Below, piece after piece: positions 26,257 through 49,330 of a DNA stretch of 64,000 nt. Location: the NCBI RefSeq assembly GCF_947563725.1, contig NC_079163.1, positions 54,886,922 to 54,950,921 of the forward strand. Reading direction: 5' to 3'. The notes beneath the pieces are model-generated. The model did not search any database. It saw only the letters and a program-made list of their open reading frames with translations, and was not told the DNA's origin. Position numbers and translations under genes: made by a program. Within the stretch, counting starts at the first letter, position 1. Each line of letters begins with the position of its first letter. This DNA comes from Argiope bruennichi. Taxonomy: Eukaryota.

Positions 26257-26529
26257 CAGGCCATCACGGTCCATAATAGTGATTTTCCAACCCCAGTCTT
26301 CATTTTGAACCACATCGTTGATTCGATTCACCGTATAGCAATCAATAGATAACGAATGAGCAAAAGTGATGACGTCCATGTCATGATTAAGACCAAGAAC
26401 ATTCTGATATTTGATTTCAGCTTGCCTCAAAGCCTCTATGATGGTCATCAAGGGAGACACCGTGACAGTGATGTCACGATTGATTGGGTTCAAATCGTCA
26501 CCAGAATTCACTCGAATAGTTGCTCCAAC
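26257..26529 (-). CDS. Internal coding exon (91 codons, phase 0 to 0) of a minus-strand gene, encoding a cysteine-poor globular segment of unknown family
   Basis: Acceptor on the minus strand is atatatgttttttttttaattactttcAG|GTTGGAGCA. Donor is GATGGCCTG|GTTAGTgaat. The open frame reads VGATIRVNSGDDLNPINRDITVTVSPLMTIIEALRQAEIKYQNVLGLNHDMDVITFAHSLSIDCYTVNRINDVVQNEDWGWKITIMDRDGL. Composition is non-repetitive and not AT-biased, and the frame is continuous with the exon at 29107-29481. Confidence 0.6.
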
Positions 26530-29106
26530 CTGAAAGTAATTAAAAAAAAAACATATATGATCAAGGGAAGTTTGCGAGTGCCATCATTACAGGTTTATAT
26601 CAAAAAGCATGCCGCCTTTTATGTATTTATTTATTTTGAAATATGAGTCCTGATTTCAAGATGTATGATAAGTATGAATTTTGGAATCATTTGCTCCAAG
26701 CTAAAGTAGATAAAATCTAAACTCAGCGTGAAAAATAACTTAAGCCATGGGCAATGCTTTGTATCAGAGGGCTTTGTATATCGCTTTCTTTCATTATTCC
26801 TAATCTTTTAACAATTCGTAGATCAGAATTACAGCCAAATCAAGATCTCAAATAGGTATATTGACTTTAAAATTCTTTTGTTCAAATAGAATTCTCTTGT
26901 TCAAAATGTTTGTTATATTCAAAATTGAAATATTTTGATATTTTAAATAAAGATAAGACATTTTTTTCTAAAAAAAGATTCTTTTCAGTGTTGTAAAAGT
27001 AAATATATCCCAAGTATTTTCGAATCTTTTTCTTATTTGGATATATAAAAGTGAAATAATTTGGATCTAAAAAAGAGAAATAATTTGAATCTAAAAAAGG
27101 GAAATAAAAGCACAATTATTTTGTCTTCTTGTGTCTTTCCCCTAAGAAAAGAGTTCAGCATATTTATACCCTTCTAGCCCCTTTTATCTAATGTCACTTA
27201 ATCCCTTGCATCTTGCGTTTTTTTTTTCAAAGTTTTTATATTATATTCATATAAAAATGAAAGCACTTTGTAGTATTTATCCTTTCATTTTTAATTTCCT
27301 CATAACTAAGAAAGATGGAATTTGTTGAATGTTACTTTTTGATAATTTATGAACTTGTCAATGCAGATAGAAAGGTTTAAAGAAACATTTTTAATGCAGT
27401 GGCTTATAATTTTATTCACATTTTTGTTAGCAATATACTTTCTTGGAAATTAAAATAGGTTCTTCTTGTTTTTCATATTCATTGTTTTTATCAGTCATAC
27501 TTTTGTATATGAAATTTTTCACATCAATGCTTTATTCAGAAGTTATTTTCCCCTTGTTTCGTTGGGTTTTTTTTTGGGGGGGGGAGCATTTTTTTTCCTC
27601 AAACGGGGGATTCAGTATATTTCCTCTCAGTCTAAAAGCAATCAACCAACTAAATTTTCTTTCTTCTTCTGTTTCGAAATATATACATACAAATAATTTT
27701 TATTATTATACAAAATATGCGATATGAGTATCGTTTCCTGAGATTTTGTTCAAAGTTATAAAAACGTTTCAGCGGAATTTTGTAATAACGGTTTGCTCTA
27801 ATCTTCTATCAGATTAATAATATATCTATCGTGGTTTTGACTTCTTATATTCTGTCGAAGAGAAAATTAACTTAGTCGTATTTGTACATGCAGCTGGCAA
27901 TGAAAGAAACGAAAATAAAAAATAAAGTTACATAAAACTTGCAGGTTTTCACACTTTGTCAGTTTGTCACTTGACATTGTAAGGAAGGCCGGCGAAATAT
28001 ATGAAATACTAATTGTTTCACATTTCAACTAAAATTGCCTAAATATTATACGGAATGCCACATTTTGAATTTACTGATAACATATAATATGAAGCCTAAC
28101 CTTAAAATATTGATTGTTATTTTAATTTATATAATTCCAAAGGATTTTATTTACGATACTGAAGTTAAAATAATTTAATAACTTATTTATCATGTAAGCA
28201 TGACAGTTAATAACATCAAAACTCCTTATATCAGATTTTTGAAAGAAACTCATTTTAATTTACGGAAATAACTAAGAAAATAGCAAATGCGCTAAATTTG
28301 GAAAGTTCTATTAATATATTTTTATGATGGTCTTATTTTCAAGCACGAGCTTAAATCTAATGGAAATATGAGACCTTAAATATTTAAGCGATTTTTTTAG
28401 TAACTTATTGCATTGATTCTTATATTTATCTACTAATGCGCTCTAACCCCCCTCCCCCTTGCAACTTCTTTCAACTATTCCTTAAGTATTTTTTTAATTT
28501 TGCAAGCTTATTGTTATACTTATTGGTAAACAAGAAATCTTGTTTCAGAAATTTCTAGAAATATTTCTAAGAAGCGATAAATATTTCAAACAGAAGTGGA
28601 ATCTTTATCTTTTTTTTTTTTTTTTAATCTGTTGTATTTTCACTCTGAAAGCTTAGCAAATGCAAAATACTTAGCAAGATTTGTTTTAAAACAAGCATTT
28701 ACGAATAAATTAATCAAAACAGTTTTCGAGAGCGCACTTTTATGAATGGACTTAACAGCAGAATTTTTCTCCTTTCATTTACTTTTTACTTTGTAATTAA
28801 TAATTCATTATTATAAATATTATAGATTCTTGTAAACAATTTTTTTCAAATCCACTTCCAGATGGCGGCACTCATAAGGAATCAAAACTTAATTAGATTA
28901 ATAGATTAATGGATAACTAAATTCTGAAAATTTTAAAACAATGTATTAGTATCGAAAAGTGCAACACGTCAGGAAAAGAGAGAAAAACCATTTTAAAAAA
29001 TTCTATCTTTAGAAACATAAAACAAGTTAAATTGAATAAAAGTGTGTAAAAATACAATATGAAGAATTAAGAATAAAATGCATGATGAATAAAGAACAAA
29101 TCTTAC

Positions 29107-29481
29107 CGGTGGTCTTAAGTGGTTGCTTTTCATAGGGATGGGAAAGATGGGAAACACTGCTGGCAAGACATGGTTCACCTTTGGTACAGTAGGTACTACG
29201 TTACCGAATACAAAAGGTGCTTCATTTCTCACTTTTAAGTCTGGTTTCATCATGGGAGGAAACATATTGGGGAAACTGTTTTGAATAGGATCAGCAGGCG
29301 CTACAGGGATTATAACAACATTAGCGTCTTCCTCTTCACTGCCGCTGAGGGGATCATTCGAAGGCAAGGAGTAAGGAGTATTGCTAGGAGCAGGCGGAAA
29401 TCGTGGCTGTGGAGGTACATCCATGATAGAGGGACTAAGCAGTTCAGGAAGAGGAATAGCATCGATGGAATTCAGCATGTT
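29107..29481 (-). CDS. Internal coding exon (125 codons, phase 0 to 0) encoding a proline-rich segment
   Basis: Acceptor is tgtgtgccttttttgcttttttAG|AACATGCTGAATTCC. Donor is TTAAGACCACCG|GTAAGAtttg. The translation is NMLNSIDAIPLPELLSPSIMDVPPQPRFPPAPSNTPYSLPSNDPLSGSEEEDANVVIIPVAPADPIQNSFPNMFPPMMKPDLKVRNEAPFVFGNVVPTVPKVNHVLPAVFPIFPIPMKSNHLRPP. It is the longest open frame in the window, and GC-balanced codon usage is unlike the AT-rich background. Confidence 0.65.
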
Positions 29482-31221
29482 CTAAAAAAGCAAAAAAGGC
29501 ACACAAAAAAAGATTCATCATTATAAATGATGATAGTTGAAAATACAAAATTAATAGTTAGTACATTCGATACTTTTCAAATGTGATATAAATAAAAAAA
29601 TACTTCATTCATGAAAGTTAGTAAAATGTTCAAAATGCAAATAATAATAATAATAATAAATAAATAAAATAAAAATACTTTAAATCTAAATATTTCACGA
29701 ACTCATGGCGCATTCCGTATTTGAGTGTTTTCATAGTAATGATCGATTGTAATGGATTCAATCATTTGTAAGACTCAAACAGCTGGATAATAACAATAGT
29801 TTTATAACACGGTAAAATCTCTCAAACCCAACGCGCAATTAATTGGCAATATTAAAATAAAGGCAGTTTTAATGATATAATTTTAAATCTGAAATTGAGC
29901 CTTATGAGATAAAAAATGAAAGATATGTAATTGATTAGTGATTAGTACTTAATAGTAAAGAAGAAGGGTGGGATGTAAGCCATACTATTTCTGTCATTAT
30001 CTCCCTTTCCTTTGATACCGACAATTGATTTGAAATCGAACATGTGTTGATAACAAAATCGAACTAGTAACCGTATAAAGAGCTCATAAAGAGCATCTTA
30101 AAATTGAAATTATTCTTTAGTAATGAAGTAAAAGCATAAAAATATGATTTCCTGCTTAAAATGTCAAGAAAAACATTCCATATATATATATAGTAAAAGA
30201 GATAATTTTTTTTTTTTTTTTTTACATATATTTACCACAATTCAGTCTCAAAAAAAATATAGCTGATGTTTACTTAAATCCTTTCTTAAAAGCAATGGAA
30301 TTTCTCTTAATTTGTTAAGGTAAAAAGTTAATTGTGAAGGAATGCGCACATTAAGTATTAGCTTTTGTTTCCGATAACCATGTCAAGACAAATTTACGCA
30401 GTAACATTCACAGTCAAAGAAAACTTTTTTATTGAAAGCATTTTTTTTTTAATCTTTTGTTCGCTTCAGTAGCTCTGTTTTCAATAACAGCGCAATAATT
30501 TTATAAATTGACGGAAAAAGGAAGAAAAAAACTTGTTTACATATGTTTGAAATCTATTTTTTTCTTAGAACTGAAAACATTTTTACATTTCCTTAGAAAT
30601 ATTCAATGAATGCTAAATAAATGTTTATTTTCAGCATGGGAGAATATTAAATTGCTAAATGCTACTGTGGACTTTTATAATTATAATTTTAATACCTATA
30701 TTTTTTGCCTATTTCTATTGAATGTAAAAACCAGCTATCTGTAATCATCTGCTAAAAAGAATAAATATTGAAGAGAATTCTTGACTTAAGAGAATAACTT
30801 AAATATTTGAGAGAATTCTTGATATTTAAGAAATTTTTTTTTTCAAAATTAATAAAGTATGTTTTTGTATTTGTTATTTTATGGACGGGAATGCACAGAA
30901 TTCGGCTTTAGATATGCAAACGTTTTATTTCTTATTATTATTCAGTTCCACCATGTTCATTTTTGAGATCTAATGTCGATTCAATTAATCATCTGCTTAA
31001 AAAGTTTTTTTAATAATTGGAAAGTTTTTTTAAAATTCAAGTCAATACCTTCCTTAAGTTCGGCGAAGGGCAAGAAATTCGCCATATTGAGATTTTTTGC
31101 TGTTGTTACGAAAGTAGTCAGGGGAGATGTAAAGATATGCAGTTTCATGAATTACTGAAAAATTGATGTACTGAAGTTGTCCAGAATGCTACTCAAACGA
31201 GTAAGAAACAACGCCTGATGT

Positions 31222-31500
31222 TGGTTGGTTGGTTTGGTTATATTAACGTCCCGTTTTGAAGCAACACAAGGGCTATTTTGGGACGGACCTCGTAATTTTG
31301 AACCGCGGTCAGATGACGAGGACGACATCTGAGCTGGCACCCCCCTCTCCACACCACACCAGCGGGAGGAAGTTTGGTCATGACGGATTTAACGTGCAAC
31401 TGACCCCCTTACGCGACGGTTCTTCGGTGGAATCGGGTCTCGAACCTGAAACCCTCCGGTTCCGAAGCTGAGACCTTACCACCAGGCCACCGCGGCCCGT
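31222..31500 (-). mobile_element. Full-length SINE-A (tRNA-derived) insertion flanked by a 16-bp target-site duplication AAACAACGCCTGATGT (31206-31221 and 31501-31516)
   Basis: Minus-strand head: GGGCCGCGGTGGCCTGGTGGTAAGGTCTCAGCTTCGGAACCGGAGGGTTTCAGGTTCGAGACCCG. The A box is TGGCCTGGTGGT and the B box is GGTTCGAGACC. The tail ends in ...TAATATAACCAAACCAACCAACCA. Exact direct repeats abut both ends. ORFs 31152-31352(-) and 31256-31471(+) are internal and spurious. Confidence 0.85.
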
Positions 31501-32933
31501 AAACAACGCCTGATGTACGGCGGATTGGTTTACTGAATCAACACTTCCTCATTTGGGCAGGCGACATCTATAAAGGGGAACAAATAATCATGAAGCAGCT
31601 GATAATAGCATTTCCTGTTCAATTTGGCTAATTTAATCCGGGCAAAAGAAATGCTCTTCATATCATTATAGAACCATCAATTTTTGCGGTACCTTGTTGG
31701 GAAGTTTGGTCCGTAGTCTTCTGACCCTTTTTCATTTACCTAAGATCAAATGCCTATAATTAATTCCATCACAAGTTGAAATGCCACTTGTCAATGATAA
31801 GCAGTGGGTAAAAGCACTCGGTTTTCAGCTGCCTTATTTCTGCACCGATGCAGTCTTTTGCTGCCATACCTCATAAACTCCAAAGTTTTCTTTTTTGCTG
31901 CTGGTCGCCAGATTCTATTATATACGTCATTAAATTTGATAAGGTGGCGCAGTGTCATTCGCCTACTCACATGAATACGTTAGATAAGATATTTTAATAA
32001 TAATAATTTTAATTCTCTGACTGCTAATTTTTAAATTACTATTTAAGTAGTAGTAACAAACAAGTTCAAATATTTTTTTTTAATGAAACGAATTTTTATT
32101 ACATGTTACCCATTAATAATACGATATATTGTTAATATAGTTAAAATGGTTAAATACATTAATATTTAAGTTAAATGATAATAGTTAAAAATGTAATAGT
32201 AGAAAATATTAGCCTACGAAAATCGTAGGATGCAGTAGAAAACAGCCTGACTTCCAATCCTTGAAAATCTCGTGATAAGGATTTGGAAGGTTACAAATAT
32301 CGATTTCATTAAATAACTAAATAATTCTAATAAATAAAGAGTATTAGAACTTAGAATAAAAAGATAAAACTTTAAAATCAGCAATAGAATTTACATTTGA
32401 AATTTTGAAATTTTTATAGAATTAGAATTTTTTTTATTGTTTTAGATAAATTGATTATAAACTGTTATGAGAACTAAGAACCATAGAAAAATATTCACTA
32501 GCCATCACTGATCACAAATGGTAGTGACGTATTTAACTAATGAAAAATAATTCAAGTACAAAAATAACTTATTACAATTTTTAGATTTGATTTCGAATTA
32601 ATTAAATAAATTCTAATTATGGAGGATTTTTAAAGTTATGATAAAAAGAAAATTCAATAACTAAAGAAAAATTCGAATTGCAGAAGAATTCGAATTAGTT
32701 AAATTCCACGATTTATGAACTATTTTTAAGTTCATTAGGATCATATTGAGGATTATTTGACTGAGAGTGTTGTAGCTTTCATGGCAATGTCCACTTGAGT
32801 TGCTATTGACTGTAGTTATTTTCAGCTACGAGTAAAAAGAGAGAGAGAACGGAAATGGGGAAGAAAAACTATTCAAATGTAAAGAAGAGAAACCATATCC
32901 AATTAACTTTCACCGGAAGGAAAGAAGTCTTAC

Positions 32934-33305
32934 CTCTTCAATTTCCTCTCTGTTCTTCATCCTTTTATACAGCGTCTTCAAAATCGCAAATGGATTTGTT
33001 CCTTTTCTCAGTGCGACTGCTTCGATGAGGTCTTGTAGGTCATTCAAGCCCACGCTGTCGACAATTTCTTCCATGTCGCATCCGACGACCCGATTACTTT
33101 GCAGTGCCATCCTGTTCGCCGAGGTTTTCAGAGGATCCAGATTGTTTTCCATGTCCGACAGTTGCTTGATTGCATTGAACTGCGGATAGTTGGAGATGGA
33201 AGAGTGGACGACTCCCATCAGCAGAAGGAAAGCGACGGAAGGAGAGAACATCCTTGGGATGCTGGAAGAGGGACAGACTCAAAGAAAAGCTTCACTGGGG
33301 GGATT
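32934..33305 (-). CDS. First coding exon of the minus-strand gene: ATG at 33251-33249, CDS 33251-32934 (106 codons); the exon starts at a 3' splice site at 33305, which implies an upstream non-coding exon
   Basis: Minus strand reads tttttttttctctAG|AATCCCCCCAGTGAAGC...TTTGAGTCTGTCCCTCTTCCAGCATCCCAAGG ATG, with an in-frame TGA 30 nt upstream of the ATG. The translation is MFSPSVAFLLLMGVVHSSISNYPQFNAIKQLSDMENNLDPLKTSANRMALQSNRVVGCDMEEIVDSVGLNDLQDLIEAVALRKGTNPFAILKTLYKRMKNREEIEE. Donor is GAAATTGAAGAG|GTAAGActtc. The hydrophobic N-terminus VAFLLLMGVV looks like a signal peptide. Confidence 0.6.
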
Positions 33306-34429
33306 CTAGAGAAAAAAAAATATTTTATTAATAGAAGGCAGATATATAATTATTTTCGTTATCCTACATAACGCACTTTTTATTATGGATTTGATTTGCT
33401 ATGCAGCTATGCGTGGGCTGATTTCCAGACTTCCACGCCACACAGGAATGAAGGTATTTTCCTCATAACAAAAAATTTAAATCACTTCTCGGATTAAAAT
33501 ACAATATTGTTAGATTAACAGCAGCAGTAGCACTTGATTTCATTTGTATAGAAAATGGGTTAATTTAAGGTATCCAACTAGGTTTCAAAGATGCTTTTTC
33601 CAGTAAAGTTTGAAATATTTTTTATGATTTGAAAATAAAGTGCAAATTTTGTAGATTCAAAAGCAGACTTTGTTTTTAATATATGTAAGATAGAACTATT
33701 GGTACAGTAGTTTCAATAATACACAAGAAAGAAAAATGAAATCGGAAAAAGTGGTATTTTTAAACGAAAATGAGTGATTTAGTTCAGTTTTACCTTAAAA
33801 GATTTTTTTACCTTATCCAAAATAATATTTGATATGCTTATATTAACTCTCTACATACTCAGCCATAGTTTGCTTATTTTTGGCAATTCTATTAAAAAAG
33901 CATGAAAATACATTCGTTTCCAGCGCATCTGGATGAACTAATTTAAAAGTGCAATGTTTAAACGCATTTTCTGTACAATGAATATTTCACTGTGATTGAT
34001 TCACGGGAAAAAATGATATCTCAAAATCAATTTAATGAAATTTGGTATACATATATCCAAAACCTTTGAGGGTGTGATAAACCGCTTCATATAGACATAT
34101 TTTACAGACACTTTAAATTCAAAACACAGACAAATTTTGACAAAAAAATTATTAACGACAACTTCAAATGCTCATAAAATTTTATTTATTAAAATAATTT
34201 TTCCTAGCATTTCCTAGTATTTCCTAGCACTGAAAATGTTGCTAAATTTTCATTAAATAAACAATCTTTTCAGAAACTAAAGGCAATGAGCATATTTTTT
34301 TCTCCGAATAGTGACCTTTCAAGTCTGTTTTAGATATTTGATACAATAAAAAATGTTTATGTATCATTTTTTTAAGAATTCGTCTCCGAACCTAGTCGGA
34401 TAATTTTATGAAAATGCTTACGATAGATC

Positions 34430-34735
34430 ATAAGGGAAATATAACATAAGGGAAAATTTAAATGCTCCATATTCGCATTACTGCAGATCTGCACATAGTT
34501 TGAGTAATAAGGGAAATAGTAAGTGCAGCAAATATGCATCTTTACAATCCTGCACATATTTTGTCTAACCAGGAAAGGTTTGAGTGCTGCAACTATACAT
34601 CACTGCAGACTTGCACATCCTTTGACTTATTAGGGGAAATATGAATGCCTCAAATATGCATTGATGCAGACTTGTACATTTTTGGATTAATAAAGGACAA
34701 TATGAGTACTGTAAATATGCATCGCTACGTAGCAT
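34430..34735. repeat. Minisatellite, about five copies of a roughly 60-bp unit (aagggaaata..aagtgc[a/t]gcaaatatgcat..ctgcagatctgcacat..tttg...)
   Basis: Direct reading of successive units. Each unit contains the motifs atgcatc, ctgcaga[tc]ctgcacat and taa[gt]gg[ag]aaat. Confidence 0.85.
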
Positions 34736-35384
34736 AGGATTAAACATGATTTGTTAATAAAGATATAATATCACTTCTGAGAATGAAACATTGGCTGCAG
34801 GAGGAAAATTGGAAAATAGGAGTTTAACAATGACTACCCGAATATATTTAAAGCTTACAATTTGAGCTCAGCTATATCAGGAATGTTATGTAAAATATTT
34901 ATGATTATGAGCAGAGAATTATCCTTCTTTGTAAGCATGTTTGAAATAGATGAAAAGCTGGGAAATGAACGATGAATCTAATGTTACTTAAATATTCTAG
35001 TTATATCTATTCAATAATATCACAGGAACATAATTAATTCCTTTTATAAAAAATTTTCAGGCATTCATCAACTTCAGGTATTCCTCTCAGCTCATGATAT
35101 ATTTGCCAACATTCTCAGAATGATGACGGCATAAAAGGAAATATTAATAAAAAAAAAACAGTGACTTTTAGTATGGAGAACTAGTCACCCACTCCTACAT
35201 TTATATCAAGAAGTCAGATTCCTTGGGAGAATACATGAATTCTTGGAGAATCTTTGATATGATTCCGAACCCATTTGCTGAAAATATCTACCTTGTTGAT
35301 CTGTTGTTGCCGTTTGCCGTTGCTCCGCATTTTTGGTAAATATCTTTCTCATATATTTTCAGAATGGTATGTCTCTGTTTGTAC

Positions 35385-35396
35385 GGGGGGGGGGGG
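35385..35396. repeat. G12 homopolymer
   Basis: gtttgtacggggggggggggtgataatagg read directly. Confidence 0.9.
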
Positions 35397-37002
35397 TGAT
35401 AATAGGCATCTTTTCTCATATCGAGAGTTAAGATTCCTTTCAAGATGGTAGGTAAATAAGCAATAAATAGAATCAATACATTTAGTGAAAACGTGAATAG
35501 ATTCTGTGGGCCTCATTTTATTTGATAACAGCCTTGTATTATTTGTTTAGAAAAAAAATTAAAAAATTTGTTCTGCAAAAATTTTTTTAACTTGTATAGA
35601 TTTCAAGAGTAAGCAAAATAAATAGATAAATAATTTTTTTTAATGAAAAGCTTTTTTTTTGTAGTTTTTTTAAGTAAGTCTACCCCTTCCCCCTCCAAAG
35701 GCATGTGCACTTAATTTTCGTTTTGACTTCGTTAGCATTGCATGTTTTATTGATTAAAATTAATTGATTTGCAATTTTTTTGTCACTTTAAAGAAAAACT
35801 GGCATCTCAAAGAATCACAGATTTATGCTTTATTTTTCTGATGCTATTGCAATGATTGTAGCCTCAAATCAAATGTAAATGAAAGAATTACTTTAAAAGT
35901 TTAATTACAAATGAAACATTGACATAAATATTTGCATCAAGATGTTAATTAGAATTTATATAAAAAAGAAAACCACGAAGTATATGATTAAAATAATACT
36001 ATATCCTATTAAGAGTTTTTCGATTGAATAAAACTGAAATTAATTGAGTAAATAATATTTATAGGAAATTATTATGCAGCAGCTTTTGACAACACAGATT
36101 TCAGCAGATTTTTGAAGGATTCATGGGTAAAAAAATGTTTCAATTTAAGTGCAAATTTCCTGATGATAAAGTATATAAAAAGGTGATTAGCTAGTTTTAT
36201 CATTTTATTTCATTACTTTGTCTCATCTCTAGAATACTCTTTTTCTTTACAATAAAATATGTTGCAAAAGTTATTTTTTCTTTAATAATGAATTCCTTTC
36301 ATAAAAATTCATCTTTTCATTTCATATACAAATATAATTTCTGTCTTCTAGATTTGCGACTTGAATTTTAATAATAATAATAAAGAAACATTTTCCTGCT
36401 ATTTAATTTATACACTCAGCAACTATTTATGGAATGCTTTCTTTTTTTATATAAACTGACTACCTAAAATATTTTGAGGTGGGCGGTAACATTATTATTA
36501 TTTTTTTTTTTTTTTTGCACGAGTATTTAGGTATGTGGTTATAGAAAAATAACCTCTTTAAATAAGGGATGAAATTAAATCTCATTATTATTATTATTAT
36601 TTTGTAAAAAAGAAAGCTTTCTCCCGACGTTACATTGTTTTTAACCTCATTTTGTTAGTCCTCTATTTTTAATTGTTAGAAATTAAAGATAAACGATTTT
36701 TATTTTCAACGGTTAGAATTTCTTATCTATAAATTATAATGTAAAAACAATAATTTCTAATTAAAACAGTGAAAAATCACCTTTTAATGTATTATGAGCA
36801 AATTATACTGCAAAACATAAATTGAAAAAAAACATCGTTCCTCTTTATTTTTATGTGATCTTCTTATCAATTGACTATTAAGCTTCCCAGAGAATTCTGT
36901 ATGTAACTCTAATTATTATAAAATCTGTAATATTTGTTATTTCAAGGACTTATCCTTTATATATTCAGCTAGATACTTGTGGAGCAGCTCGGTTTCATCA
37001 AA

Positions 37003-37140
37003 GTATTGTTTTGAAGGGATTTGAGGGATATTTTGTGACCGATCTCTTAATTTTGAACCGTGATAAAATGATGAGCACGATATCTGAGCAGGTACTCACT
37101 CTCAATTAACACATCAGTTGGGGGACAAGAGGTCAACCAG
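37003..37140 (-). mobile_element. SINE-A family fragment (body only)
   Basis: gttttgaagggatttgagggatattttgtgaccgatctcttaattttgaaccgtgataaaatgatgagcacgatatctgagcagg aligns with the + strand of the 31222-31500 copy (cccgttttgaagcaacacaagggctattttgggacggacctcgtaattttgaaccgcggtcagatgacgaggacgacatctgagctgg). Confidence 0.55.
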
Positions 37141-37876
37141 TAGAACGAGAATAGCGTATAACATTCTTTGTTCAATAAATATATGAACTAAGACATTAAG
37201 ATTGGCTTGAGATACGTGTGACCCTGACCTTGTCTGCTTTGAAAAAACTCTCGGAAAATTCATAAAGAGTTTAATGGTGTCCATGGCTATTGCATATTGA
37301 AGAAAATAGTTCCGTTCAAATGCATCAAGTATTTCAGTGAAGTTCGTGATGATTACAAAAATGATGGAGGAAACCTGCTTTGTAATTTGATGAAAAGAGT
37401 CGCAGCAGTTGAATATTCAGACTTTTGAGAATTTCCAGGAATATGTTGAACAGTGGAAATAGAGAGTGGGTAAAAGGAGCATTTTATAAGAAGAAAAATT
37501 AGTTTATTTAAATTTTGTGAACTTACATTCTTACTACACAGTTTGCGTATTTATTAAACAAAATACGTAATTAACCATTTTCTTTGTTCTGGCACGGCAT
37601 ATAAAGAAGAGGGACTAATGAACGGTCTTTATTTTTTCTAACAGATAGATCGTACCTCTTAAGATGAAAGATTACTGTTTGGAGTGCGTCGTGATTGGGC
37701 TTGTTTCACACGAAGTACAATCCCTCTCAGTGGCCTACCATTAAAATTTTGAGTGTTATGGTATGTTGCGAGGTCTCAGATTTCGTTTTTTAGTTATTTC
37801 TCTTCTACATAAATATTTATCTTCAATAATTTTCTTATTGGTTCTAACTTCTTATTAATTTTGATGTATGTCCCAT

Positions 37877-38126
37877 GGGGGACACCTCGTAATCAAGGAT
37901 GAAAAGCTTCCGGTATGGTGGTTGATTCTCGCCACTCCTGTAGTTACACGAAAAGGTGGGGGTCTTGCTCCTCCCATCGATAACGGGACATATTTCCTTA
38001 GGGAAGGGTTGTACCGTGGCTGGTGATGGCCCTTAGGACTCAACCACAGTTCCCGCCGGTGTTGCAGTTGCGGCGGTCCGGTCATTCAATTTTTCCGTGT
38101 GCCTTCCGGCGTGTTGGAGTAGTCAG
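37877..38126 (+). mobile_element. Family C SINE-like element, copy 4
   Basis: Reads gggggacacctcgtaatcaaggatgaaaagcttccggtatggtggttgattctcgccactcc...ggttgtaccgtggctggtgatggcccttaggactcaacc...tttttccgtgtgccttccggcgtg. ORF 37855-38085(-) is internal and spurious. Confidence 0.7.
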
Positions 38127-38301
38127 TTTGTGATTAATTTTGATATATTTATCAACGATGATTCGTGTTTATGATATATGAAAAAGACAAAAGACTTTGA
38201 CAGAAAACTTATGCATTATTATATATTTTATGAAATTAAGAGTTATATATTTATGTGCTTTTTGAGAAATGTAACTTGTGCCGTATCCGTATTGTCAGAC
38301 A

Positions 38302-38614
38302 ATACAGCACACTATTTGTTGTCCAAAATGTTTGTAGCAAATCTTTAAAAAATCTCTTTTTGTCTGATACGTATTACAATGACCATTGGAATTTATTTTC
38401 TGAAGACAAATTTAGAAATTTTAAATGAATTATAGCGATAAATTATTAATTAAAAACTACAGCACACTATTTGTTGTTCCAAATGTTTGTAGCAAATCTT
38501 TAAAAAATCTCTTTTTGTCTGATGCGTATTACGATGACCGTTGAAATTTACTTTCTGAAGAAAAATTTAGAAATTTTAAATGAATTATAGAGATAAATTA
38601 TAAATTAAAAACTA
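38302..38614. repeat. Two-copy tandem duplication with a period of about 157 bp
   Basis: acagcacactatttgttgtccaaaatgtttgtagcaaatctttaaaaaatctctttttgtctgatacgtattacaatgaccattggaatttattttctgaagacaaatttagaaattttaaatgaattatagcgataaattattaattaaaaacta is repeated with about 8 substitutions. Confidence 0.9.
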
Positions 38615-40841
38615 TGAAGTGGAAAATAATTAAAATTAAAAAAAATTATAGTAAATTAATGCAATTGTATTGTTATAAATGTGATTATATCTGAAACTTA
38701 TACCACTTATAGTGAAAGAAGCCAGTGTATAGAATTTATTCTGAAATTATTTATTCGGTTCAAAACGGTAAAAAGTAAGATCTTTAAGTAAAATACCGAC
38801 CTTAACATTTGTTTTGTTGTAATAATTCAACCGTAAAAATTAAATGAATAAAAATATAATCTTAAGTTTTATTAAAAATTCAAAATGACTATTAAGGACT
38901 AATTCAAATCCTATGAAAAAATAAATGCTTGAGTAACTCGTACGAATTCCGTATGCAATTACTGAAGCAAAATCAACAAAATAATTCTCCTGACTTCATT
39001 TTAGATTTATTTGTATATGTTTTTTATAATAATAGAATCCATAAGTGTCTAGAGATGCTAATTGAAATGAAGCTATTTAAAAACGCTTTCGAATTAAAAC
39101 AAGTAATAAAGAATTTCTCCTCCCCCCCCCTACTATTCAGGTTTTTATTGTTCTGGAAGATCAGATTTTTTTAAATACTTTTTTTTTTCAAAGCGGAGCA
39201 TTTCCGGTTCTCTATTTAAAGTGTCGACTGAATCCTAAAGAGTTTTATATTGGCCACTTTTCAACTTTTTAATTATCATTGCAATTTTTTTCAAACATTC
39301 TTCAACGCATTTTGTAAAAAAGGGCAAAGAATGAAACATTTTTTGTTATTGAAAAAGGAAGGTTTTATGAATTAAACAGTAACAGCAAAGTATTTGATAT
39401 CTCAGAGCAACAGATTAAAAAGTGATTACAGTCACATAATTTAATAACATTTTTTGTCATCGAATAATTTCTTATTGCTGCTTTTTTCATAATTAGATTA
39501 CTTTCTTGATAAGATTTCTTTATCATAATCGATTGAATAAAATTAGAAAAAAAAATAATCAGTAATCAGCCTTTTTATCTTTCTAAATGTCAAATAATGT
39601 TAAAAAGGGGTTAATAGCAAGGATAAAAAAAAATTTCTCACTCACATTTCTAAGAAAAGACGTTAGCTTTAAATTTAATTAATTAGGTTGGTGACATAAA
39701 AAAATATAATGTAAAATAAAATTTCCTGAAGTATAAAACGGTATATCATTTGCTTAAGCCAATAACTGTTTAGTCGCGAAATAATTATTCTAGAAACATT
39801 TTGACTGCTTATGTCCGAAGGGCAGAAAAAAATGTAAATTCTTTTAACACGTTCAAAGCCCACTGTATCTTAAGTGCATGATTTATATCAGATCTAACAC
39901 TTTTTAAACCAGAAAGGCACAAAAAAAATCACTTTTATAATAACTGTTAATTCACTGATAGTATCAACAAAACTGATTTTACCAAATATCTATGTATATG
40001 CCAGCTAGAATAACTTTGATTTAATTGATGATATAGCATTGTGACTTTCATCTTATGTTTAATTTTGTTGTACATCATCAAAGAGCAAAGTAGAATTTTC
40101 AGTAAATTACTCTTTTTAAGCACTTTTATTTAACTTCATAAGTTTCATGTGGCTAAAAACAGCATCTTGTTGTTGCTTTTTCACTTATTTTTTGAAACAC
40201 AATAGTTTAGAAAATTCGCACAGTTATTTATTTTCTAGGACAATATTCTATTTGAATATTTTCAAGAACAAATAGATAGAATAATTTAATTAAATTAAAT
40301 ACCATTTGTTAGTGAATTCGAGAAAGAATGGATTTCAAGTGTCGATAATACTCATAATAAAGAATTATAAATTTAAGACTGAAAAGTAAATAACTAAAAT
40401 AATTAAAATAAAATTCCATTTTTTAATACACTAATAAAACTATGTTCTTAAATATAGTTTATACTATATAAATTATTATATATATCCTCTTGAGTAAAAG
40501 AGATATAATATTCTTAGATTTATAGACTACATAAAAGGTGGTTAATTTGTACATTTACTGCATCTAAACGCAATGCAGTAAGGTTATTATGACTGGTACT
40601 AAATGCTGACTAATTTCTACTAAATACTGATATTAAATAAATTGAGATCTAATTTCTAAAAAAAAAATGAAACTCAACTGGATTAAAACGTGAACAATAT
40701 ATACTGTGATCAAAATTTAAGATTCAGATCAGATTTAACATCTTGGATACACAGATTTAACATCTAAGATTCAATCAGATTCCTGTCATATTTGGAATTA
40801 AATACACAAAAAGGTTGACCTTCTATGGGTTTACACTTCAA

Positions 40842-40985
40842 TAAGCACGTAAACAGAATAATTCAAAATTGCAATGACTTAAATATATGAAATTTGGAAT
40901 GTGATTTTGTGACTGGAATTATAGTTCTATGTCAGATTTTGGTTTCATCCTATCAGATCAAAAAACATCCAAAATAGACATTCCA
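40842..40985 (+). repeat. Family E repeat, partial copy (sub-unit 2 only)
   Basis: aagcacgtaaacagaataattcaaaattgcaatgacttaaatatatgaaatttggaatgtgattttgtgactggaattatagttctatgtcagattttggtttcatcctatcagatcaaaaaacatccaaaatagacattcc aligns to 17075-17230 and 53395-53540. Confidence 0.65.
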
Positions 40986-43900
40986 TTTTCTGGAACGGTT
41001 AATGCCAGTAAACAACAGTGATTAATCACAAAATATTTGCCAACGATTGCTCTTACATAGACTTTTTCATATCTACCGTTCGTCAACGGTATGCAGTTAA
41101 TAATACACAAGTGCATGTATCAGAAAGTATGCGAAAAAGTTTCGAGAAGAGCTCTCGTGCTGGTTTAATATGTTGTTTCATTAGGACTCTATTTTTTGCA
41201 TTCACTTTGCTTTGGATTGCTTGCTAGGCATACTTTGTTTTTATGGCATTTATGAAAGAATGTAATAGCATATTTGATTTCAGAATATCGTGAAATGATA
41301 GCTACAAAAAACACATAGTAGTTGGGGAGTAAACAAATAAGTCTCCTGGGTCTCAATAAGGTATGTTATTGATTTTCTTCGTATAAGAGCGTGGATTTAT
41401 TTCTGGAAACATATAGCAATATATCGAATGGATCGAATTAAATTATCCCTTGTCAGAAGAATGTAAGTAATAAAACTATTTTCTCTGATCATTATTTCCT
41501 AATTTGTAGTTCATGTTCATCTTCTTCTTTTGATTAATATGAGAGAAATATGAGGAATCAAATTCATCAGAAATATGAGAAATTTAACTAAAGCTCCTTG
41601 GGATAATAAAGCTACAAATATTTCGAATTAAATGTTTGAGTTAATTTGGAAAAATAGAGAATGTGTATCGGAGACACCTACGAATTCAAGCGAAATGCGG
41701 TATAAAATGTTGTTGGGTCAGGTGTTCTAAGAACGCTGTCAGATTTGTTTATGTCAAATATGCAAGAAGAAACTCATCCTAACGAGGGAGTAAATATAGC
41801 CCACTCAAAATTCATTTCATTCCGACGTTAAGTATTCGAGCATAGCATTTTGATCCATGTGACATGATACCTGCAAGCCTACAGCAAAAAAAACACATGG
41901 CTGGCTGTATATTTCGCTAACATATCTTTAATGGTGAAGAACACTTTGATGATTAGTATATTTATTTTTATGATTAACTCTTGACACACTGCCTTATCAA
42001 GATTGCAAATCATGAACACTGAAATTACAACATGATGATGGCTTTTATTGACTATTTGGAGAGCTAGAGCTAGAGCTATTTGATATAAATTTGTACTAAA
42101 TAGAAAAAGATTTGATGTTTCTGCTACAAAATTTGGAAGAAACCACAACGCAACTGACAGAAGATGAAAAAAATTACTGTAAAACGATATGACATTGATT
42201 GAGTTTTATATAAACGGATTTAAGATTACAACCAGCTTTTAATGGGGTTATTTATAATGCACTTTGAATAAAAGAGAATATTTGAAGAATTAAAATAAAA
42301 TTACAGAGATAAATTAAGATATTATCATCAAATTTTGCAAATTTCAAGATAAATCGCGATTAAAATTTGGCGTTAATATTTCAGAATAAAATAATTAAAA
42401 AAATACAGAATAATATTTTTCAGCTGCTTTTTTCTGTACATATGTTTTTATATTGAATTTAGCTCTGAAAAGTTCCGTTATATCTTTTAAGAGAACATAT
42501 AGAAATCTAATAATTTATTCCCAATAAAGGAGTTTTCATTTTAATAATAACATGACTTTTGAAGCTACCGAAGTGTATTATTGCTAATAACATATTTGCT
42601 TCATATCATATTCATTTTCATTTTTATTTGACTCCCTAGCGCTTTAAAGCAATTATATATTATAATGAATCGCAATTCAATTCATGTTAGAGCGGAATGT
42701 TTCAAATAAAAATAATCTGATGTATTCGCAACCGAAATGAATCTATGCATCCCCTATTATATATTGAATGATTTTAATGTATTTTCTTCTGAATAATATC
42801 AAAAGAATAAAAGGCAATATTCAAAGAGAGAGCTCACGAAATTGCATGCATCATTTTTGTGCAATAAAAAACAATATTGTTGCCGGGAAAGAACTGTGAA
42901 TTGTGAGAAAAATTATAGAAATAATGAAAGCGGAACTAAAAATTTTTAACACTGCAAGCACGCTAACAGGAAATAATGATATTAAAATAAATTTATGAAA
43001 TTAATATAAAATTCTTTTCGACTGAATTGCGAATCATGAAAATTTCTGTTCTACTGAAATAATTTCGAAATTTTATTCCGACTTCCCTCTTTGATGAATT
43101 CATACATTTTGATTTCATAAACGAAATAGTTAATCGATAAGATTTCAAATTAAAATTGTATGGAAAGCTAAAAGAAACAGCATTACTAATAAAAAAACAT
43201 TGACAGTATTTTTATGCACCTTACGACTGCGTGTAATAGACTATAAAATTAAACCATTTTCGTTTTAAGAATTGCGTTTTATGACTTACAATATCAATAA
43301 TTTATGATAAATCTAATTTTAATTAAGATTTATCAGCAGGTTTTAAGTACATTGGAATCATATTCTGGACTATTTAATAAGTCGAAAAGATATACCATGT
43401 TATGTTCACTATACTGGATATTTGAATTTCTTCTCATCATGGTATTTAAATTTGTTTTTCCAAGTCTATGTTCACAAATTTGTTTTTCCAAGTCTATGTT
43501 CACAAATTTGTTATTAATAGACAGAGAAGATTTTAATGAAGTAAAATCGCTCCAGTTATAAAAGTGCTATTAAAAACATTGCAGGAATTTTTTAAAAAAT
43601 TTACACTGATTTTGAATTAGGTTTCAGTCTTATATATTTAATTGATGCTAATTTTTTGATCGCAAATAAATCAATTAATCAATTTCTGTTAAGATGCCTC
43701 ATTGAAATTTCAAGAACTTTTTAAAAAGGTGCAAAACAAATGTATGAAGTAGTAAAAATAACTCTTTCTCCGAAATTTCATCATTTTTTTTTTTTGCACG
43801 CTTTTATTTAACATGACTTGTTTCGTTTTTGTAAGATGGTCTTTTGTAATCGAATTTTCCTTAATTTCCTTATGAATTAGAATCTTGAAATTTTGCAGAC

Positions 43901-46900
43901 ATGTATTCTTTATGAGCCTATGCAACTTCATTATTACAGAAGTTAATTATCGTTTAATTGATTAATTGAGTTAAATTTTCCTTTTTTTAGTTATATATTT
44001 GAGGAAAAAAATATTTTATGATTTTTTAATATTCATTATAATGAATTATAAATTAAAATCGAACATAATTAAAACAAAATATTCTGTTTTTGATTTTTTT
44101 TTAAAAACTATTCTGTGAAATTGATTTTAAAATACTATGGCACTGAATCCTTTAAAGTGCAGGCAGACGCGTAATTAAAGAATTTTCATACCGATGAATA
44201 GTGAATTTTAAAACAGCAATTTTAATGCAGTAATTAGAATTAAATTAGTGCTAATAACATTTTACGTGATAAAAAATATTGAAGAAGCGTTTAATAACCT
44301 GGCATTTAAAGATATGCAATAAAAGAATAACAATACCCAGAATATGTTTAAAAATTGAATAAAGTAAGAGGATACAGGCCAATGAAATATTCAGAAAGTT
44401 AAAGAGATTGTAAATAACCGTAGATCTTTGATACTCTAAATTTAACAGAATAAATATTGAAAAGGAAACGTGTCATGCTTGATCAAATGATTACACAAAG
44501 TATTAATACTGGGAAAAGCTTTCTTGAATGCCTAGGACAAGATTTTTAATGAAAATCATGAGTGAATAATGATCAATCTCATTTATTAATCATTAATGAG
44601 TTTTGCTTGAAATTAATACAACATCATGATGTTGCAACCAATATTAACATCCGTTTGATTAATTATCAACTAATGTTGAAATAGGGTTGTTAGGTGTTAA
44701 AATAATCTTTGAAAGCTTTCAGTTATTCAAGTAATTCATTCATTAACCATTATTCAATATTACAATTAATATAACAGCGATAGTTATTTAGTAATAGCTA
44801 TTCAATACAACAACTCATCATGCTTGCAAATGAGTTGTCTTTCGGTTTTTAAGTTTTCGAGCTCCTTCAGAAAAGAATTTTTATTATATGAATCAGTAAG
44901 CCTTGAGTGCCTATACAGGATAGTGTTGGCCCTGTGACAGAACCTCAACTTTTGGACAGAAGTGTAGAGATTCGATTCCACAAAAGTTTGTCCAATAAAT
45001 GGATTAATGCTCATTAAATTTGAGTTCCCTTCTAATATGTTGTAGATTCAAAGAGAGGGTTATTGACTCTAGAATAATTTTTTGTCATCTGCAACACTTC
45101 GAGGTGCTTGCGGAAAAAACTCGCGTTTAGCTTCAAAATAGAAAAGTTAATCTAATAAACTTATATTAAGAAATTTGATTAATGTGATTATCTGCGTTGT
45201 TATGGTTACTTTATTTATTGGATTTCAGAGTTAAAGTTTGTTTTTTGTTTTTAATTTTGCCACCTCTTCCTCAAGAATTTTTAATAACTGCTATTATAAC
45301 GCTGGTTAAAAGCAGCCAAGGATCGCACTTTTTTCTCTTACTTTCATTCTTCAATAAAGCATTTCATTCAAAAATTGACGTAAAAATTTCATTTCAAGTT
45401 TGTGTTCAAAATGGATTCATTATTAATGAATTACAAAACTATTATTACAAAATTAAATGAATTACAAATTTCTTTCAAAATACATGCAAAAAATTAATAT
45501 GAAAAAATATCCAATTTTGAAATCAAATGATACAGGTGAGAAATTTTTCTTACAATATAATTTCTTCATAGCCAATTTGGGAATGAAAACATTTAGTTCA
45601 TAATAGAGATACCGATATGTGAACATAATATTGTATTATTTTATCGTATTGCTTTATTTTTTACAGATTTTACTCTGAAAAAATTATTTATATAATAATG
45701 GAAATATAGCTAAAAATCTTAGCAATGAAAGAAAAACAAAGGATAATAAAATATTTATTATTTTGAATAAGGGAAAAAATTACTTAACACTTAGAAAATC
45801 TTAATTTTGCAACTTATCTGTAAAACCTATGATAATCAAGTTTTTGTTAAGCTGAGAAAAGTTAAATAAACATATAAACTATAAATAATTCTACAAAAAC
45901 ATTTTCTTTTATTATTTATTGCTCCTTCTATTTAAAAAAATTGGACTTAAATCTGATAAAAAGAATTGTAATAACTATGCATTAAAGTTTTCTTAATTAT
46001 TGATATAAATGTTTTCGCACCTTTCAGAAAGGGGATCCGAGCGACATTTTCAGATGAAAATGCAGTGAAGAAAAGTTTTGCGAAAGATTCATATTAATTT
46101 TAGCATTTTTGTTGAAACGCAGAGATATTCAACTTTATTTTCAATAAAAATTAAATTTATTCCTAAATATAATATATTTTCAAAATTTCATCAATAAATA
46201 ATCATTAACATTTCAGTTAAACCATTTTCCAATTCTTCCACCAGAAATTTTCTGATCATTTTTATTTTCTTATCAAACGAACTGATTTTACACAAACATG
46301 CAGATCATGAATTTTTCTGGTAATCGTATTTACAATAACAAAGAAATAATTTTTTTAAATTATTCCAGAAAAAAATCTCAACATTTAAATTGAAAGATCC
46401 TAATGTGTTTTTTATTGAAACATATTTAGATTACTTCAAAATCTCTCAAAACTAAACATCCTAAATTTTCTTTTCTAAAACATATAGACTTTGTCAAAGT
46501 TCGAAGAATAATGTTTGTGGAAATCATCACAAACAGTTTGTGCGATTCTGTTTAAATCATTGTTAATAAATTCGCACTTGTAATTCTTAAGTAATTGCGC
46601 AGAGAGTTCTAACAGATTCTATTTAAAATTACAGAAAAAATTTTAAATCTTAAAATTTACAAGTTTTCTTATCGACAATATGCGATTATTTAACTAATTA
46701 TCTTAAAATATTATTGAAAACATTTGCGATAATCTTGATTTGAGTTAATAATGATATTAGCTCTTAAACACAAGAAATGCCTTATTAAAACTTCATCCCC
46801 AAAAAAATTTCACAATTTTAAACTAGAATTTCTAAGAATTATTTTACTGGTAACTTTTTAATCATTGCAGAGTCTTCAAAAACTAAATATTACACATTTT

Positions 46901-47980
46901 TCTTTTTAAAATAATTAGAGAAATTGCTATTGTTATATATTACTTTAATTAAAGTAAGTAAAATCTTTGAACTAAATCTTGACTAACTAACTTATTTTAA
47001 ATCTTATCTTAACTCATATTCCTTCACTCCGAGCATTCTGGTCATTCCAATCAGTTTAGTAATTAAAAAACTAATTAAATAAATTTATAAATGAAAAAAA
47101 CTCCAAGAATTTTGAAAATATACAATGCCTTTTGTGTTGAGAGATCAATACATTTAAAATAAATCTTCATGAAATAGATATTCGAATACCATCAATGCGA
47201 ATTTCCCGAACACTTTACTGACTTTTCGAAAATTAAATAACGAGCGGTGTTGTTTTCGAAAAGATTTAGAAAATCCTAGATATTAAAGAATAGGATATAT
47301 CCATACAAGCGGCATTCTATTTATGATAAATATTATAAATAACTGTGAATACATTTGCCTATTTCTATTGAGAATTCTAAAAGGTTTTTATATCATTCAG
47401 TAAAAGATCTCGATTTCATTATTTTCACTAAAAAAATCTAATTAATTTCCGAATTATAGTTTTTTTTCTTTTTCAGTGTGAAGGACAGCAGAAGGCGCAT
47501 CATAAATATCCAAATACAATTTTACTTAAAATAAATTTAAGAAGCTTGTAATTGCCCACACCAAAAAGTTCTGAAATCTTCCGCAGATCTTTCAAATGTA
47601 TTGAATAAAAATTTCAAACTTTTTTTTCGAACATTTCTATATTTAAACAGTACAACAATTGAATCTAAAACTAGATGCTACTTATATTCGAAAGTCAAAT
47701 ATCATAAAATTTTCTTCTTAACATGCTCGCGGAAGTGAGTGCTATAATATTCATTTTCACTGAAATACACGATGCAATAAATACTGTGGCATTCAAATTT
47801 ATGATATAAAAATGGATTAATTTTTTTCTTACTATTTTAAAATACCATGCATTCAATTCCATATGATCATTTTTTTAATTATTAGACAAATTAAATCACT
47901 AATTCAACAATACTCTAAATATCTTCATTTTTTTCTAATCTTTTCTTTCGTTGTCCGTGAACATATTAAAAAAACTTATA

Positions 47981-48345
47981 TGATCAGTATTTTGAAAAAT
48001 AATACTTTTATAAATCGAAATAACGTTACATAAAAGCATCTTCATGACAAAATTTTTCAGAGAACTTTTAAATCGCTTTTAATTATTATCAAAAATTATA
48101 TATCATGAAACTTTTTTCAAAAAATTTGGCCGCAACAGAACTTTTAAAGAATCAGATTAGTATCTTTTTAAAAAATAATGTTTGTATAAATCGAAATAAC
48201 GTTGCATTAAAAACATCTTCATGACAAAAATTTTGGAATATTTACACGAAAACTTTCAAATTGCTTTTATTTATTATCTAAAATTAAATATCATGAAACT
48301 TATTTTCAAACAATTGGGTTGAAATTTTAAAGAATCATATCCGTA
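47981..48345. repeat. Two-copy tandem duplication with a period of about 182 bp
   Basis: aataatacttttataaatcgaaataacgttacataaaagcatcttcatgacaaaatttttcagagaacttttaaatcgcttttaattattatcaaaaattatatatcatgaaactttttt recurs as aataatgtttgtataaatcgaaataacgttgcattaaaaacatcttcatgacaaaaattttggaatatttacacgaaaactttcaaattgcttttatttattatctaaaattaaatatcatgaaacttatttt. Confidence 0.85.
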
Positions 48346-48659
48346 CAAATGAATATCATTCATTTAAAAGTAAATATCATTTAACTTCTTCTTTACTTCT
48401 TTATCTACTTTTTAAAAGTTCTCTTTATCTACTTCTTAAAAAGATATACAACAAATTTTCAATAATTATCCGATTCAGAATTCTAGATTTTACAGTTATG
48501 CGATATTCGAATTCTCTCAAAACTTTCTAATTATTTCTCAAACTCCGAAAAACTAAATTTTTGGCATATATTTTTCCAAAAAAAGATAAAATGCCTTAAT
48601 ATCTTTAAAGAATTCCACATATCATTCTATTGAAAGTAAATCTAATAAGTTTGCAGAAG

Positions 48660-49330
48660 CCCTTACCGAAATATGCTGCAACTTTCAACAGGTGACAAGG
48701 ATCAGAGAGCTTAGGCAAAGGCGACTCGTTGCTTCTGAGTCGAAAACCAGAGTAAGCGATTTTTCGGGGTGTTCTCTATATATCTGAGCTTCTTGTTGCG
48801 GGGGAGTGGCGCCTGCTCTGTGAATTCCTTCTTCTATATTTTCATTCACTCACTCCTGCTTGCGTCACTCCTACAATTTATCGGAAGAATATTCGAAATA
48901 TGTGTACGCGAGAAAAAGTAGTTTACAAATCTCTGGAATTCCGGTAGTGAGAAACCCCGTAACTTATCGATATTTATTTCGCACAAAATGCGGGAAGAGT
49001 TGAGAGTTGGCACTTGAAAAGCCTTTACTTCGGCCCGTTGCAAACACTTTTGCGGCCCTCACGAGTGTGATTCATCTGGAATATGGCTCATCTACTACAA
49101 GCGCATGTTTGAAACCTGTTGCTGACGTGCCAAGTTTCTTCATCTCACTCCTTTTTCAAGATTCAGTCTATAAATCGACTTATTTTTAAGCGAAAACTCA
49201 TGTTTGCTAGTTAAATGAAGGACAGAAGCAAAGCGTCGTGTCGGTTAGCATCAGTTGAATACCGCTGATATCTGTTTAGGCAGCAAAAATTTTTTTTGTC
49301 TTTGTTCGGTAGCAAATCGTGTACAGTTCA
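48660..49330. promoter_or_regulatory. GC-richer, CpG-containing, repeat-free island with a TATA element (+ 48775-48784 tctatatatc; minus-strand TATATAG); candidate promoter and 5' UTR region
   Basis: Local composition is markedly less AT-rich than the flanks, with CpG-containing strings (gcgcctgc, gtacgcgag, cggcccg, gcggccc, cgtcgtgtcgg). There is no long ORF on either strand and no similarity to the repeat families defined here. Confidence 0.35.
48667..48750 (-). other. Candidate non-coding first exon of the minus-strand gene; the 5' end is approximate, the 3' end is a GTAAGG donor
   Basis: Minus strand reads ATATATAGAGAACACCCCGAAAAATCGCTTACTCTGG...GTTGCAGCATATTTCG|GTAAGGgcttctgc. The TATA element lies about 90-110 nt upstream of the donor. 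The first coding exon at 33305 opens with an acceptor, so a 5' exon is required somewhere upstream. Linking the two is inference. Confidence 0.25.

Follow-up and report, generated by a model that had tools for sequence, protein, structure and literature searches.

A gene of Argiope bruennichi with four coding exons encodes a member of an unnamed protostome family with a predicted transcobalamin-like beta-grasp domain

The 64,000-nucleotide (nt) stretch of the Argiope bruennichi genome considered here (contig NC_079163.1, positions 54,886,922–54,950,921; hereafter referred to as the window) carries on its minus strand a gene for a protein with a hydrophobic leader, a proline-rich linker and a C-terminal domain for which a transcobalamin-like beta-grasp fold is predicted. 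An earlier note on the bare sequence had proposed three coding exons at this locus, and had correctly supposed an arthropod host. Translation and the splice flanks show the proposed boundaries and joins to be exact: the frames at 33251–32934, 29481–29107 and 26529–26257 encode 106, 125 and 91 residues with 0 stops, the flanks are canonical (GAG/gtaaga, ttttttag/AAC, CCG/gtaaga, ctttcag/GTT and CTG/gttagt, with exons in capitals), and all exon joins of the gene are in phase 0. The resulting stop-free product of 322 amino acids shows 100% identity to residues 1–322 of a 352-residue uncharacterized protein of A. bruennichi, LOC129960452, deposited in full length as KAF8790949.1 in GenBank and XP_055929872.1 in RefSeq. 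The gene is LOC129960452; it was already annotated, its gene model is not new, and the description of the locus as unannotatable has to be abandoned. As had been anticipated, the gene extends further 3': the last 30 residues (IVYDGFCLPNGKDVLVKPGTLIYLSYVSLY) are encoded at 23851–23762 of the minus strand, behind the acceptor tgtctttcag/ATC, again in phase 0. This fourth coding exon (23851–23759) lies 2.4 kilobases (kb) past the lower bound given previously, and nothing specific supports an extension of the gene up to 48790, the previous upper bound. The same four exons, with the frame intact, are present in a second A. bruennichi assembly.

The exons are distinguished by their G+C content, 0.39–0.47 against 0.27–0.30 in the introns and ∼29% in the window as a whole. 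In first-order Markov shuffles of the window the longest stop-free run has a mean of 124 codons and a maximum of 157, and the length of the open reading frames (ORFs) by itself only marginally exceeds what chance would yield. It is homology, and not ORF length, that settles the reality of the gene. Orthologues with 46–81% identity over their full length are found in seven other spider genera (Larinioides, Trichonephila, Nephila, Oedothorax, Uloborus, Stegodyphus and Parasteatoda). In both Larinioides and Trichonephila the coding sequence is likewise divided into four exons, which share the junction codons of Argiope, are bordered by AG and GT and join in phase 0. Intron lengths vary widely among Argiope, Larinioides and Trichonephila, despite identical positions. 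The ratio of non-synonymous to synonymous substitution rates (dN/dS, Nei-Gojobori) is 0.17 between Argiope and Larinioides, with a dS of 0.52, and 0.11 between Argiope and Trichonephila, for which dS is saturated. Calculated separately for exons 1 to 4, it is 0.07–0.16, 0.16–0.18, 0.06–0.21 and 0.05–0.07, and therefore does not exceed 0.21 in any exon, including the proline-rich one. For P0013, a more remote orthologue, contigs of ∼1.5 kb from two sequencing runs, mRNA-like in appearance, carry a single 975-nt ORF with no interruption. Since P0013 matches the Argiope protein in one unbroken alignment, from residue 23 to residue 351, the counterparts of all four exons are contiguous in it. The locus holds a real gene of four coding exons, under purifying selection and present as a single copy in the window.

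The comparison also revealed that the public model of the Larinioides orthologue is wrong at its 3' end. The deposited protein (P0002) ends in an aberrant 30-residue tail, taken from an exon ∼13 kb further on, and the true terminal exon (IVYDGFCLPNGKDVLVKPGTVIFLSYVSL), 93% identical to that of Argiope, is found with a proper acceptor and stop at L004:30433-30519, where L004 is the Larinioides sclopetarius contig CAXIEN010000093.1 of assembly GCA_964023285.1.

At the 5' end, a putative poly-T...AG/A acceptor at 33307–33306 and the 54-nt leader that follows it are conserved in Argiope, Larinioides and Trichonephila, and conservation decays upstream of this AG, which makes a non-coding exon upstream of 33305 plausible. 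For the non-coding exon 1 postulated before, the predicted acceptor is thus supported by conservation, but the exon itself was not located by upstream conservation comparison with Larinioides and Trichonephila. The sole conserved block further upstream, which is AT-rich (39363–39562, see Table 1), has a collinear counterpart 8.4 kb upstream of the Larinioides orthologue. No conserved GT donor is present at its edge; this block might act as an enhancer or promoter, or might belong to the missing exon. At the 3' end, the region 23935–23444 is 85.8% identical to the Larinioides locus, suggesting a conserved 3' untranslated region (UTR) of ∼310 nt, and 23896–23495 is 70% identical to Trichonephila.

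The modules of the protein follow the exons neatly, with the leader and most of the helices in exon 1, the linker in exon 2, and the C-terminal domain in exons 3 and 4 (Table 1). The leader, which by its hydropathy resembles a signal peptide, is present in 20/20 full-length family members checked with a hydropathy heuristic, and the product is probably secreted. The proline-rich middle segment had likewise been recognised earlier. In contrast, the segment that follows, described there as a "cysteine-poor, low-repeat segment", is not featureless but the most conserved part of the protein, with a predicted beta-grasp fold and two invariant cysteines. In an alignment of 22 diverse C-terminal domains, Pro257, Met259, Ala268, Cys295, Cys329 and Pro331 are invariant, and Trp312 (21/22), Pro340 (21/22) and Gly341 (19/22) nearly so. 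The mature arthropod proteins contain exactly three cysteines, namely this invariant pair and Cys58. In an AlphaFold2 model of the full-length protein the predicted local distance difference test score (pLDDT) is 54 overall, 70–86 in the C-terminal domain and below 50 for residues 107–229. Beyond the helices at residues 60–114, the N-terminal portion is predicted disordered, and shows no match to Cobalamin_bind.

Table 1. Features of the LOC129960452 locus and of its product; positions are those of the window.
Feature	Position	Strand	Residues	Remarks
Conserved AT-rich non-coding block	39363..39562	minus		Located 6 kb 5' of the start codon; 201-nt alignment with Larinioides at 78.6% identity
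5' UTR part of first coding exon	33252..33305	minus		Starts directly after conserved 3' splice site; acceptor predicted from sequence
Coding exon 1	32934..33251	minus	1-106	Leader, poorly conserved tail, conserved Cys58, start of helical region; donor GAG/gtaaga
Hydrophobic leader	33251-33198	minus	1-18	Within coding exon 1; assigned by hydrophobicity
Coding exon 2	29107..29481	minus	107-231	End of long helix, then proline-rich, predicted disordered linker ending in conserved LRPP motif
Coding exon 3	26257..26529	minus	232-322	beta1, beta2, helix, beta-hairpin insert, beta3; invariant S-P-x-M, Cys295, Trp312
Coding exon 4	23759..23851	minus	323-352	beta4, connector with invariant Cys329-Leu-Pro, K-P-G turn, beta5; TGA stop at 23761-23759
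Probable 3' UTR	23445..23758	minus		AATAAA at 23518-23513 and 23470-23465; polyadenylation site predicted
Tail			19-57	Poorly conserved
Helical region			~58-115	Begins at conserved Cys58; helices at 60-114 in AlphaFold2 model
Linker			116-229	Predicted disordered, with 22.8% Pro; conserved LRPPxG motif at its end
C-terminal domain			230-352	Compact, ~120 residues, most conserved part

A profile searched against 1.84 billion representative proteins returned 42 relatives at an expectation value (E) ≤ 0.001. These originate from spiders, scorpions (Centruroides), Limulus, mites (Oppia, Halotydeus), ticks (Ixodes, Rhipicephalus) and the millipede Chamberlinius. The scorpion, mite, tick, Limulus and millipede members share the layout of the Argiope protein, that is a leader, a Cys-initiated helical region, a proline-rich linker, LRPPxG, and a domain with S-P-x-M, C, W, C-x-P and K-P-G, while the C-terminal domain alone is also found in Priapulus, bivalves (Mya, Ostrea, Ylistrum) and the brachiopod Lingula. 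Contrary to the earlier proposal, the gene is therefore not lineage-specific. No insect, crustacean, nematode or vertebrate was found among the matches with an identifiable source, an absence that is limited by the sensitivity of the hidden Markov model. A profile search with the C-terminal domain alignment returned just 4 short proteins, its candidate step being seemingly length-bound. The Lingula anatina (P0033) and Mya arenaria (P0039) members carry two tandem copies of the C-terminal domain and lack an N-terminal helical region of the arthropod type, and in the 519-residue P0053, which belongs to the same 90% cluster as the spider paralogue P0016, the domain profile matches at two to three places. 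The ancient, mobile unit of the family is thus the C-terminal domain.

Some of the matches deserve separate mention. A fusion to a CD36 domain, seen in one of the millipede entries, probably reflects a merged gene model. A second, paralogous spider group comprises P0016 (Parasteatoda LOC107446299), P0022 (Uloborus LOC129220841), P0020 (Trichonephila clavipes) and P0038; its motif is LRPPPGVTVRV...CYVI...YWKI...CLPS..VKPGMTITLLY, and it is not present in the window.

The family has no Pfam model and no name, all of its members being labelled uncharacterised or hypothetical, and no mention of it was found in the searchable literature when looked up by accessions, locus names and peptide strings. 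In line with the lack of a family match reported in the earlier note, Pfam scans of the 322-residue product, of exon 3 alone, of 8 full-length orthologues, of 10 distant relatives and of the 22 domains gave no relevant match, and a sequence search of the PDB with the family profile gave 0 matches at E ≤ 10.

The AlphaFold2 model of the C-terminal domain, generated from the 22-sequence alignment, has a pLDDT of 90 and a predicted template modelling (TM) score of 0.82. Its topology is beta1-beta2-alpha-[beta-beta]-beta3-beta4-beta5, in which a five-stranded beta-grasp core with one helix is joined by two extra strands (58–63 and 68–74 of the domain model) that form a hairpin insert after the helix. 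The highest fold-comparison values were obtained for human intrinsic factor (11.5), followed by the transcobalamin beta-domain (10.8), haptocorrin (10.7), bovine transcobalamin (10.4) and the bacterial structure 3u7z (9.4), with SAMP1, MoaD and ubiquitin-like folds at 6.9 or less. Similarly, the first 13 places in Foldseek are all taken by transcobalamin, intrinsic factor or 3u7z, at TM scores of 0.50–0.65 compared to ∼0.3 for ubiquitin-like folds. The low-confidence full-length model gives the same top fold matches. According to Burroughs et al. (2007; PMC1796856), the transcobalamin-like clade of the SLBB superfamily is defined by a beta-hairpin inserted directly behind the helix, with a conserved hydrophobic or aromatic position in it, and signal peptides are found in the majority of its members; the hairpin insert and a hydrophobic leader are both present in the LOC129960452 family. 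The predicted fold, obtained with confidence, is thus a beta-grasp with a hairpin after the helix, the arrangement that characterises the beta-domain with which transcobalamin, intrinsic factor and haptocorrin bind cobalamin, as well as bacterial DUF4430 proteins. The new element of the present analysis is this predicted assignment of an unnamed protostome-wide family to a transcobalamin-beta-like beta-grasp fold, which neither Pfam nor the searchable literature was found to contain.

At the level of sequence, the statistics are weak. Aligned with hhalign against the beta-domains of transcobalamin, intrinsic factor and haptocorrin, the family obtains a probability of 3–13% and an E of 0.002–0.015. 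The marginal alignment is in the correct structural register, matching Trp to Trp and K-P-G..I.L to k.GE.IeL. It stayed marginal because no diverse DUF4430 profile could be built, the seeds from these three beta-domains having drawn just mammalian fragments in the homologue search. The domain is therefore taken here to be, by its model, a structural relative of transcobalamin-beta/DUF4430 that has diverged strongly, and not a demonstrated sequence member of PF14478.

The nearest known systems share some but not all of these features. The vertebrate cobalamin carriers (transcobalamin, intrinsic factor and haptocorrin) are extracellular and possess a signal peptide, as predicted here for the Argiope protein, and in both the beta-domain has a hairpin after the helix and is located at the C-terminus, behind a flexible linker. 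However, the carriers possess an alpha-domain of ∼300 residues, folded as an alpha/alpha toroid, in place of which the Argiope protein has a ∼55-residue helical region and a 110-residue proline-rich linker. Identity between the carriers and the family is 10–21% in structure-based alignments, and the invariant Cys pair and S-P-x-M are specific to the family. The bacterial DUF4430-type protein RUMGNA_00854 (PDB 3u7z) has, like the family, a domain without a toroid partner, but it is bacterial, and it and the transcobalamin-like SLBB clade have other flanking architecture and show no detectable sequence relationship to the family. Short, DUF4430-only "Tcn-like" proteins have been mentioned in teleosts (PMC4350170). 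These are animal proteins with a transcobalamin-type beta-domain without the full architecture, as in the LOC129960452 family, but they are recognisable as DUF4430 by sequence, which the family is not; the two are set side by side here by description.

Taken together, I lean, if only slightly, towards the interpretation that LOC129960452 is a secreted protein, composed of an N-terminal helical region, a proline-rich linker and a divergent transcobalamin-like beta-grasp domain, that probably binds a soluble ligand. The C-terminal domain would bind this ligand outside the cell, with the proline-rich linker serving as a flexible tether. Conservation suggests that a Cys295–Cys329 disulfide would staple the hairpin to the connector, and that the odd Cys58, together with the helical region, may serve in covalent dimerisation or in attachment to a partner. 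The invariant residues fall within those parts of the sequence from which transcobalamin builds its ligand face, with Cys295 and an aromatic residue on the second hairpin strand, Trp312 on strand 3, Cys329-x-Pro331 in the connector and Lys-Pro-Gly before strand 5. In 17/22 domains the invariant Cys of the second hairpin strand is followed by Tyr, Phe or His, at a position that is the putative counterpart of the transcobalamin base-stacking residue. A corrinoid is a possible ligand, guessed from precedent. Since cobalamin is retained by the beta-domain of human transcobalamin even when this domain is isolated (PMC5599065), a binder lacking the toroid has a precedent. Going further, the family could be an unrecognised invertebrate carrier of corrinoids (vitamin B12), in which a stand-alone, disulfide-stapled transcobalamin-beta-like domain would be tethered to a small dimerising helical region; by analogy this may be conceived, but I consider it rather unlikely. 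A loss of all B12-dependent enzymes has been reported for insects and for no other animal group (PMC2667541), and no insect member is found among the identified matches, a correlation that is suggestive but weak.

A number of observations weigh against a secreted, transcobalamin-like ligand binder. The signal peptide is assigned by hydrophobicity, and the putative disulfide and dimerisation by conservation. The alpha/alpha toroid, which gives half of the B12 site of transcobalamin, is absent. No match to PF14478 (DUF4430) or PF01122 (Cobalamin_bind) was obtained for 8 full-length orthologues and 22 domains, even at E ≤ 10, and the weak hhalign scores described above point in the same direction. 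Beta-grasp domains very often mediate protein–protein contacts, and the fold alone does not imply ligand binding. Finally, two strongly conserved glycines, just after strand 2 and in the turn before strand 3, are hallmarks of SLBB domains (PMC1796856), but in the LOC129960452 family the first is replaced by the invariant Ser-Pro-x-Met, with Pro in 22/22, and the turn before strand 3 has Gly in 16/22 members and Asp in Argiope.

The main rival keeps the same gene and the same fold, but regards the C-terminal beta-grasp as a protein–protein module, and the product as an extracellular signalling, adaptor or matrix protein without a small-molecule ligand. Ubiquitin-like, PB1, DIX and staphylococcal SSL/Eap beta-grasp folds, many of them protein binders, do occur lower in the match lists, the family has neither sequence similarity to DUF4430 nor a toroid, and the long proline-rich linker and helical N-terminal region could be docking elements. 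Since the clade-specific hairpin insert is present, and the invariant residues fall on the elements of the transcobalamin ligand face, I regard this as possible but less probable than ligand binding. A different proposal would be a prohormone or neuropeptide precursor, cut at conserved basic sites (YKRMKNK). The signal peptide, the conserved K/R-rich stretch at residues 95–102 and the presence of just three cysteines would agree with it, but the basic stretch lies within a long predicted helix, no conserved dibasic site is found in the scorpion or tick orthologues, and the best-conserved part is a folded domain of 120 residues and not a set of short peptides flanked by cleavage sites. It is accordingly very improbable, slightly more so than the glandular origin discussed next.

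Because the host is a spider, a venom-gland or silk-gland product specific to spiders, either a toxin or an accessory protein of glue or silk, also has to be considered. The Nephila pilipes orthologue bears the automatic UniRef name "Spider venom protein", and a secretory leader and a proline-rich region would fit. However, the family is present in taxa that have neither venom nor silk (oribatid mites, ticks, Limulus, a millipede, bivalves, Lingula and Priapulus), there is one gene copy in the window, and no literature link of these sequences to venom or silk was found, in a search outside which the supplements of the A. bruennichi venom paper fell. The dN/dS of 0.11–0.17 corresponds to strong purifying selection, which is unlike typical toxin families. 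The phyletic spread and this selection lead me to reject a venom toxin, and to consider a glandular product improbable in general. As for chance frames, a pseudogene or ORF remnants of transposable elements, the ORF lengths are indeed near those yielded by shuffled AT-rich sequence, and SINE-like (short interspersed nuclear element) repeats and a weak DDE transposase fragment occur elsewhere in the window. These explanations are excluded, to near certainty, by the database identity, by the exon structure conserved in three genera and by a dN/dS far below 1; moreover, the gene is single-copy in the window, its frame is intact in two assemblies, and its product has no transposable-element Pfam domain, a match that the earlier note had named as a possible refutation.

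Elsewhere in the window, the plus strand has an open frame at 926–1246 whose product matches the Kazal-type serine protease inhibitor domain (PF07648, E 6.7e-11). It lies within the first 2 kb, which are richer in GC, and probably belongs to a neighbouring plus-strand gene as one of its exons. Downstream of LOC129960452, a block of ∼730 nt (8421–9151) is 73% identical to Larinioides, with a core (8634–8796) 78% identical to Trichonephila. Stop codons break all of its orthologous frames, and it is therefore a conserved non-coding element, a UTR or a non-coding RNA. More collinear blocks conserved with Larinioides are located at 6632–7031, 4895–5252 and 2865–3472. Repeat copies of ∼200–300 nt, possibly SINE-like, are found at 17510–17817, at 31152–31471, within intron 1 of the gene, and at ∼37855–38128; the first two contain pseudo-ORFs reading ...SSSSDRGSKLRGPSQNSPCVASKRDVNITK... 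The description of the window as SINE-dense is weakly supported, as just 7.8% of it has a second copy within the window. At 58267–58545 of the plus strand, a weak match to the DDE_1 transposase domain, which falls short of the Pfam cut-off (E 5.9e-4), probably represents the decayed remains of a DNA transposon. Scans of the window for tRNA and Rfam families gave no matches.

The gene model itself adds nothing new, beyond the correction of one deposited model, that of the Larinioides orthologue. The useful result is a fold assignment, by prediction, for a family spanning several protostome phyla, which turns an "uncharacterized protein" into a testable hypothesis, namely an extracellular binder of soluble ligands, possibly corrinoids, and designates the residues to mutate (Cys295, Trp312, Cys329-x-Pro and Lys-Pro-Gly). 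In non-insect protostomes, B12 carriers are essentially undescribed. If the corrinoid-carrier proposal were true, this family would provide a molecular player for B12 handling in these animals.

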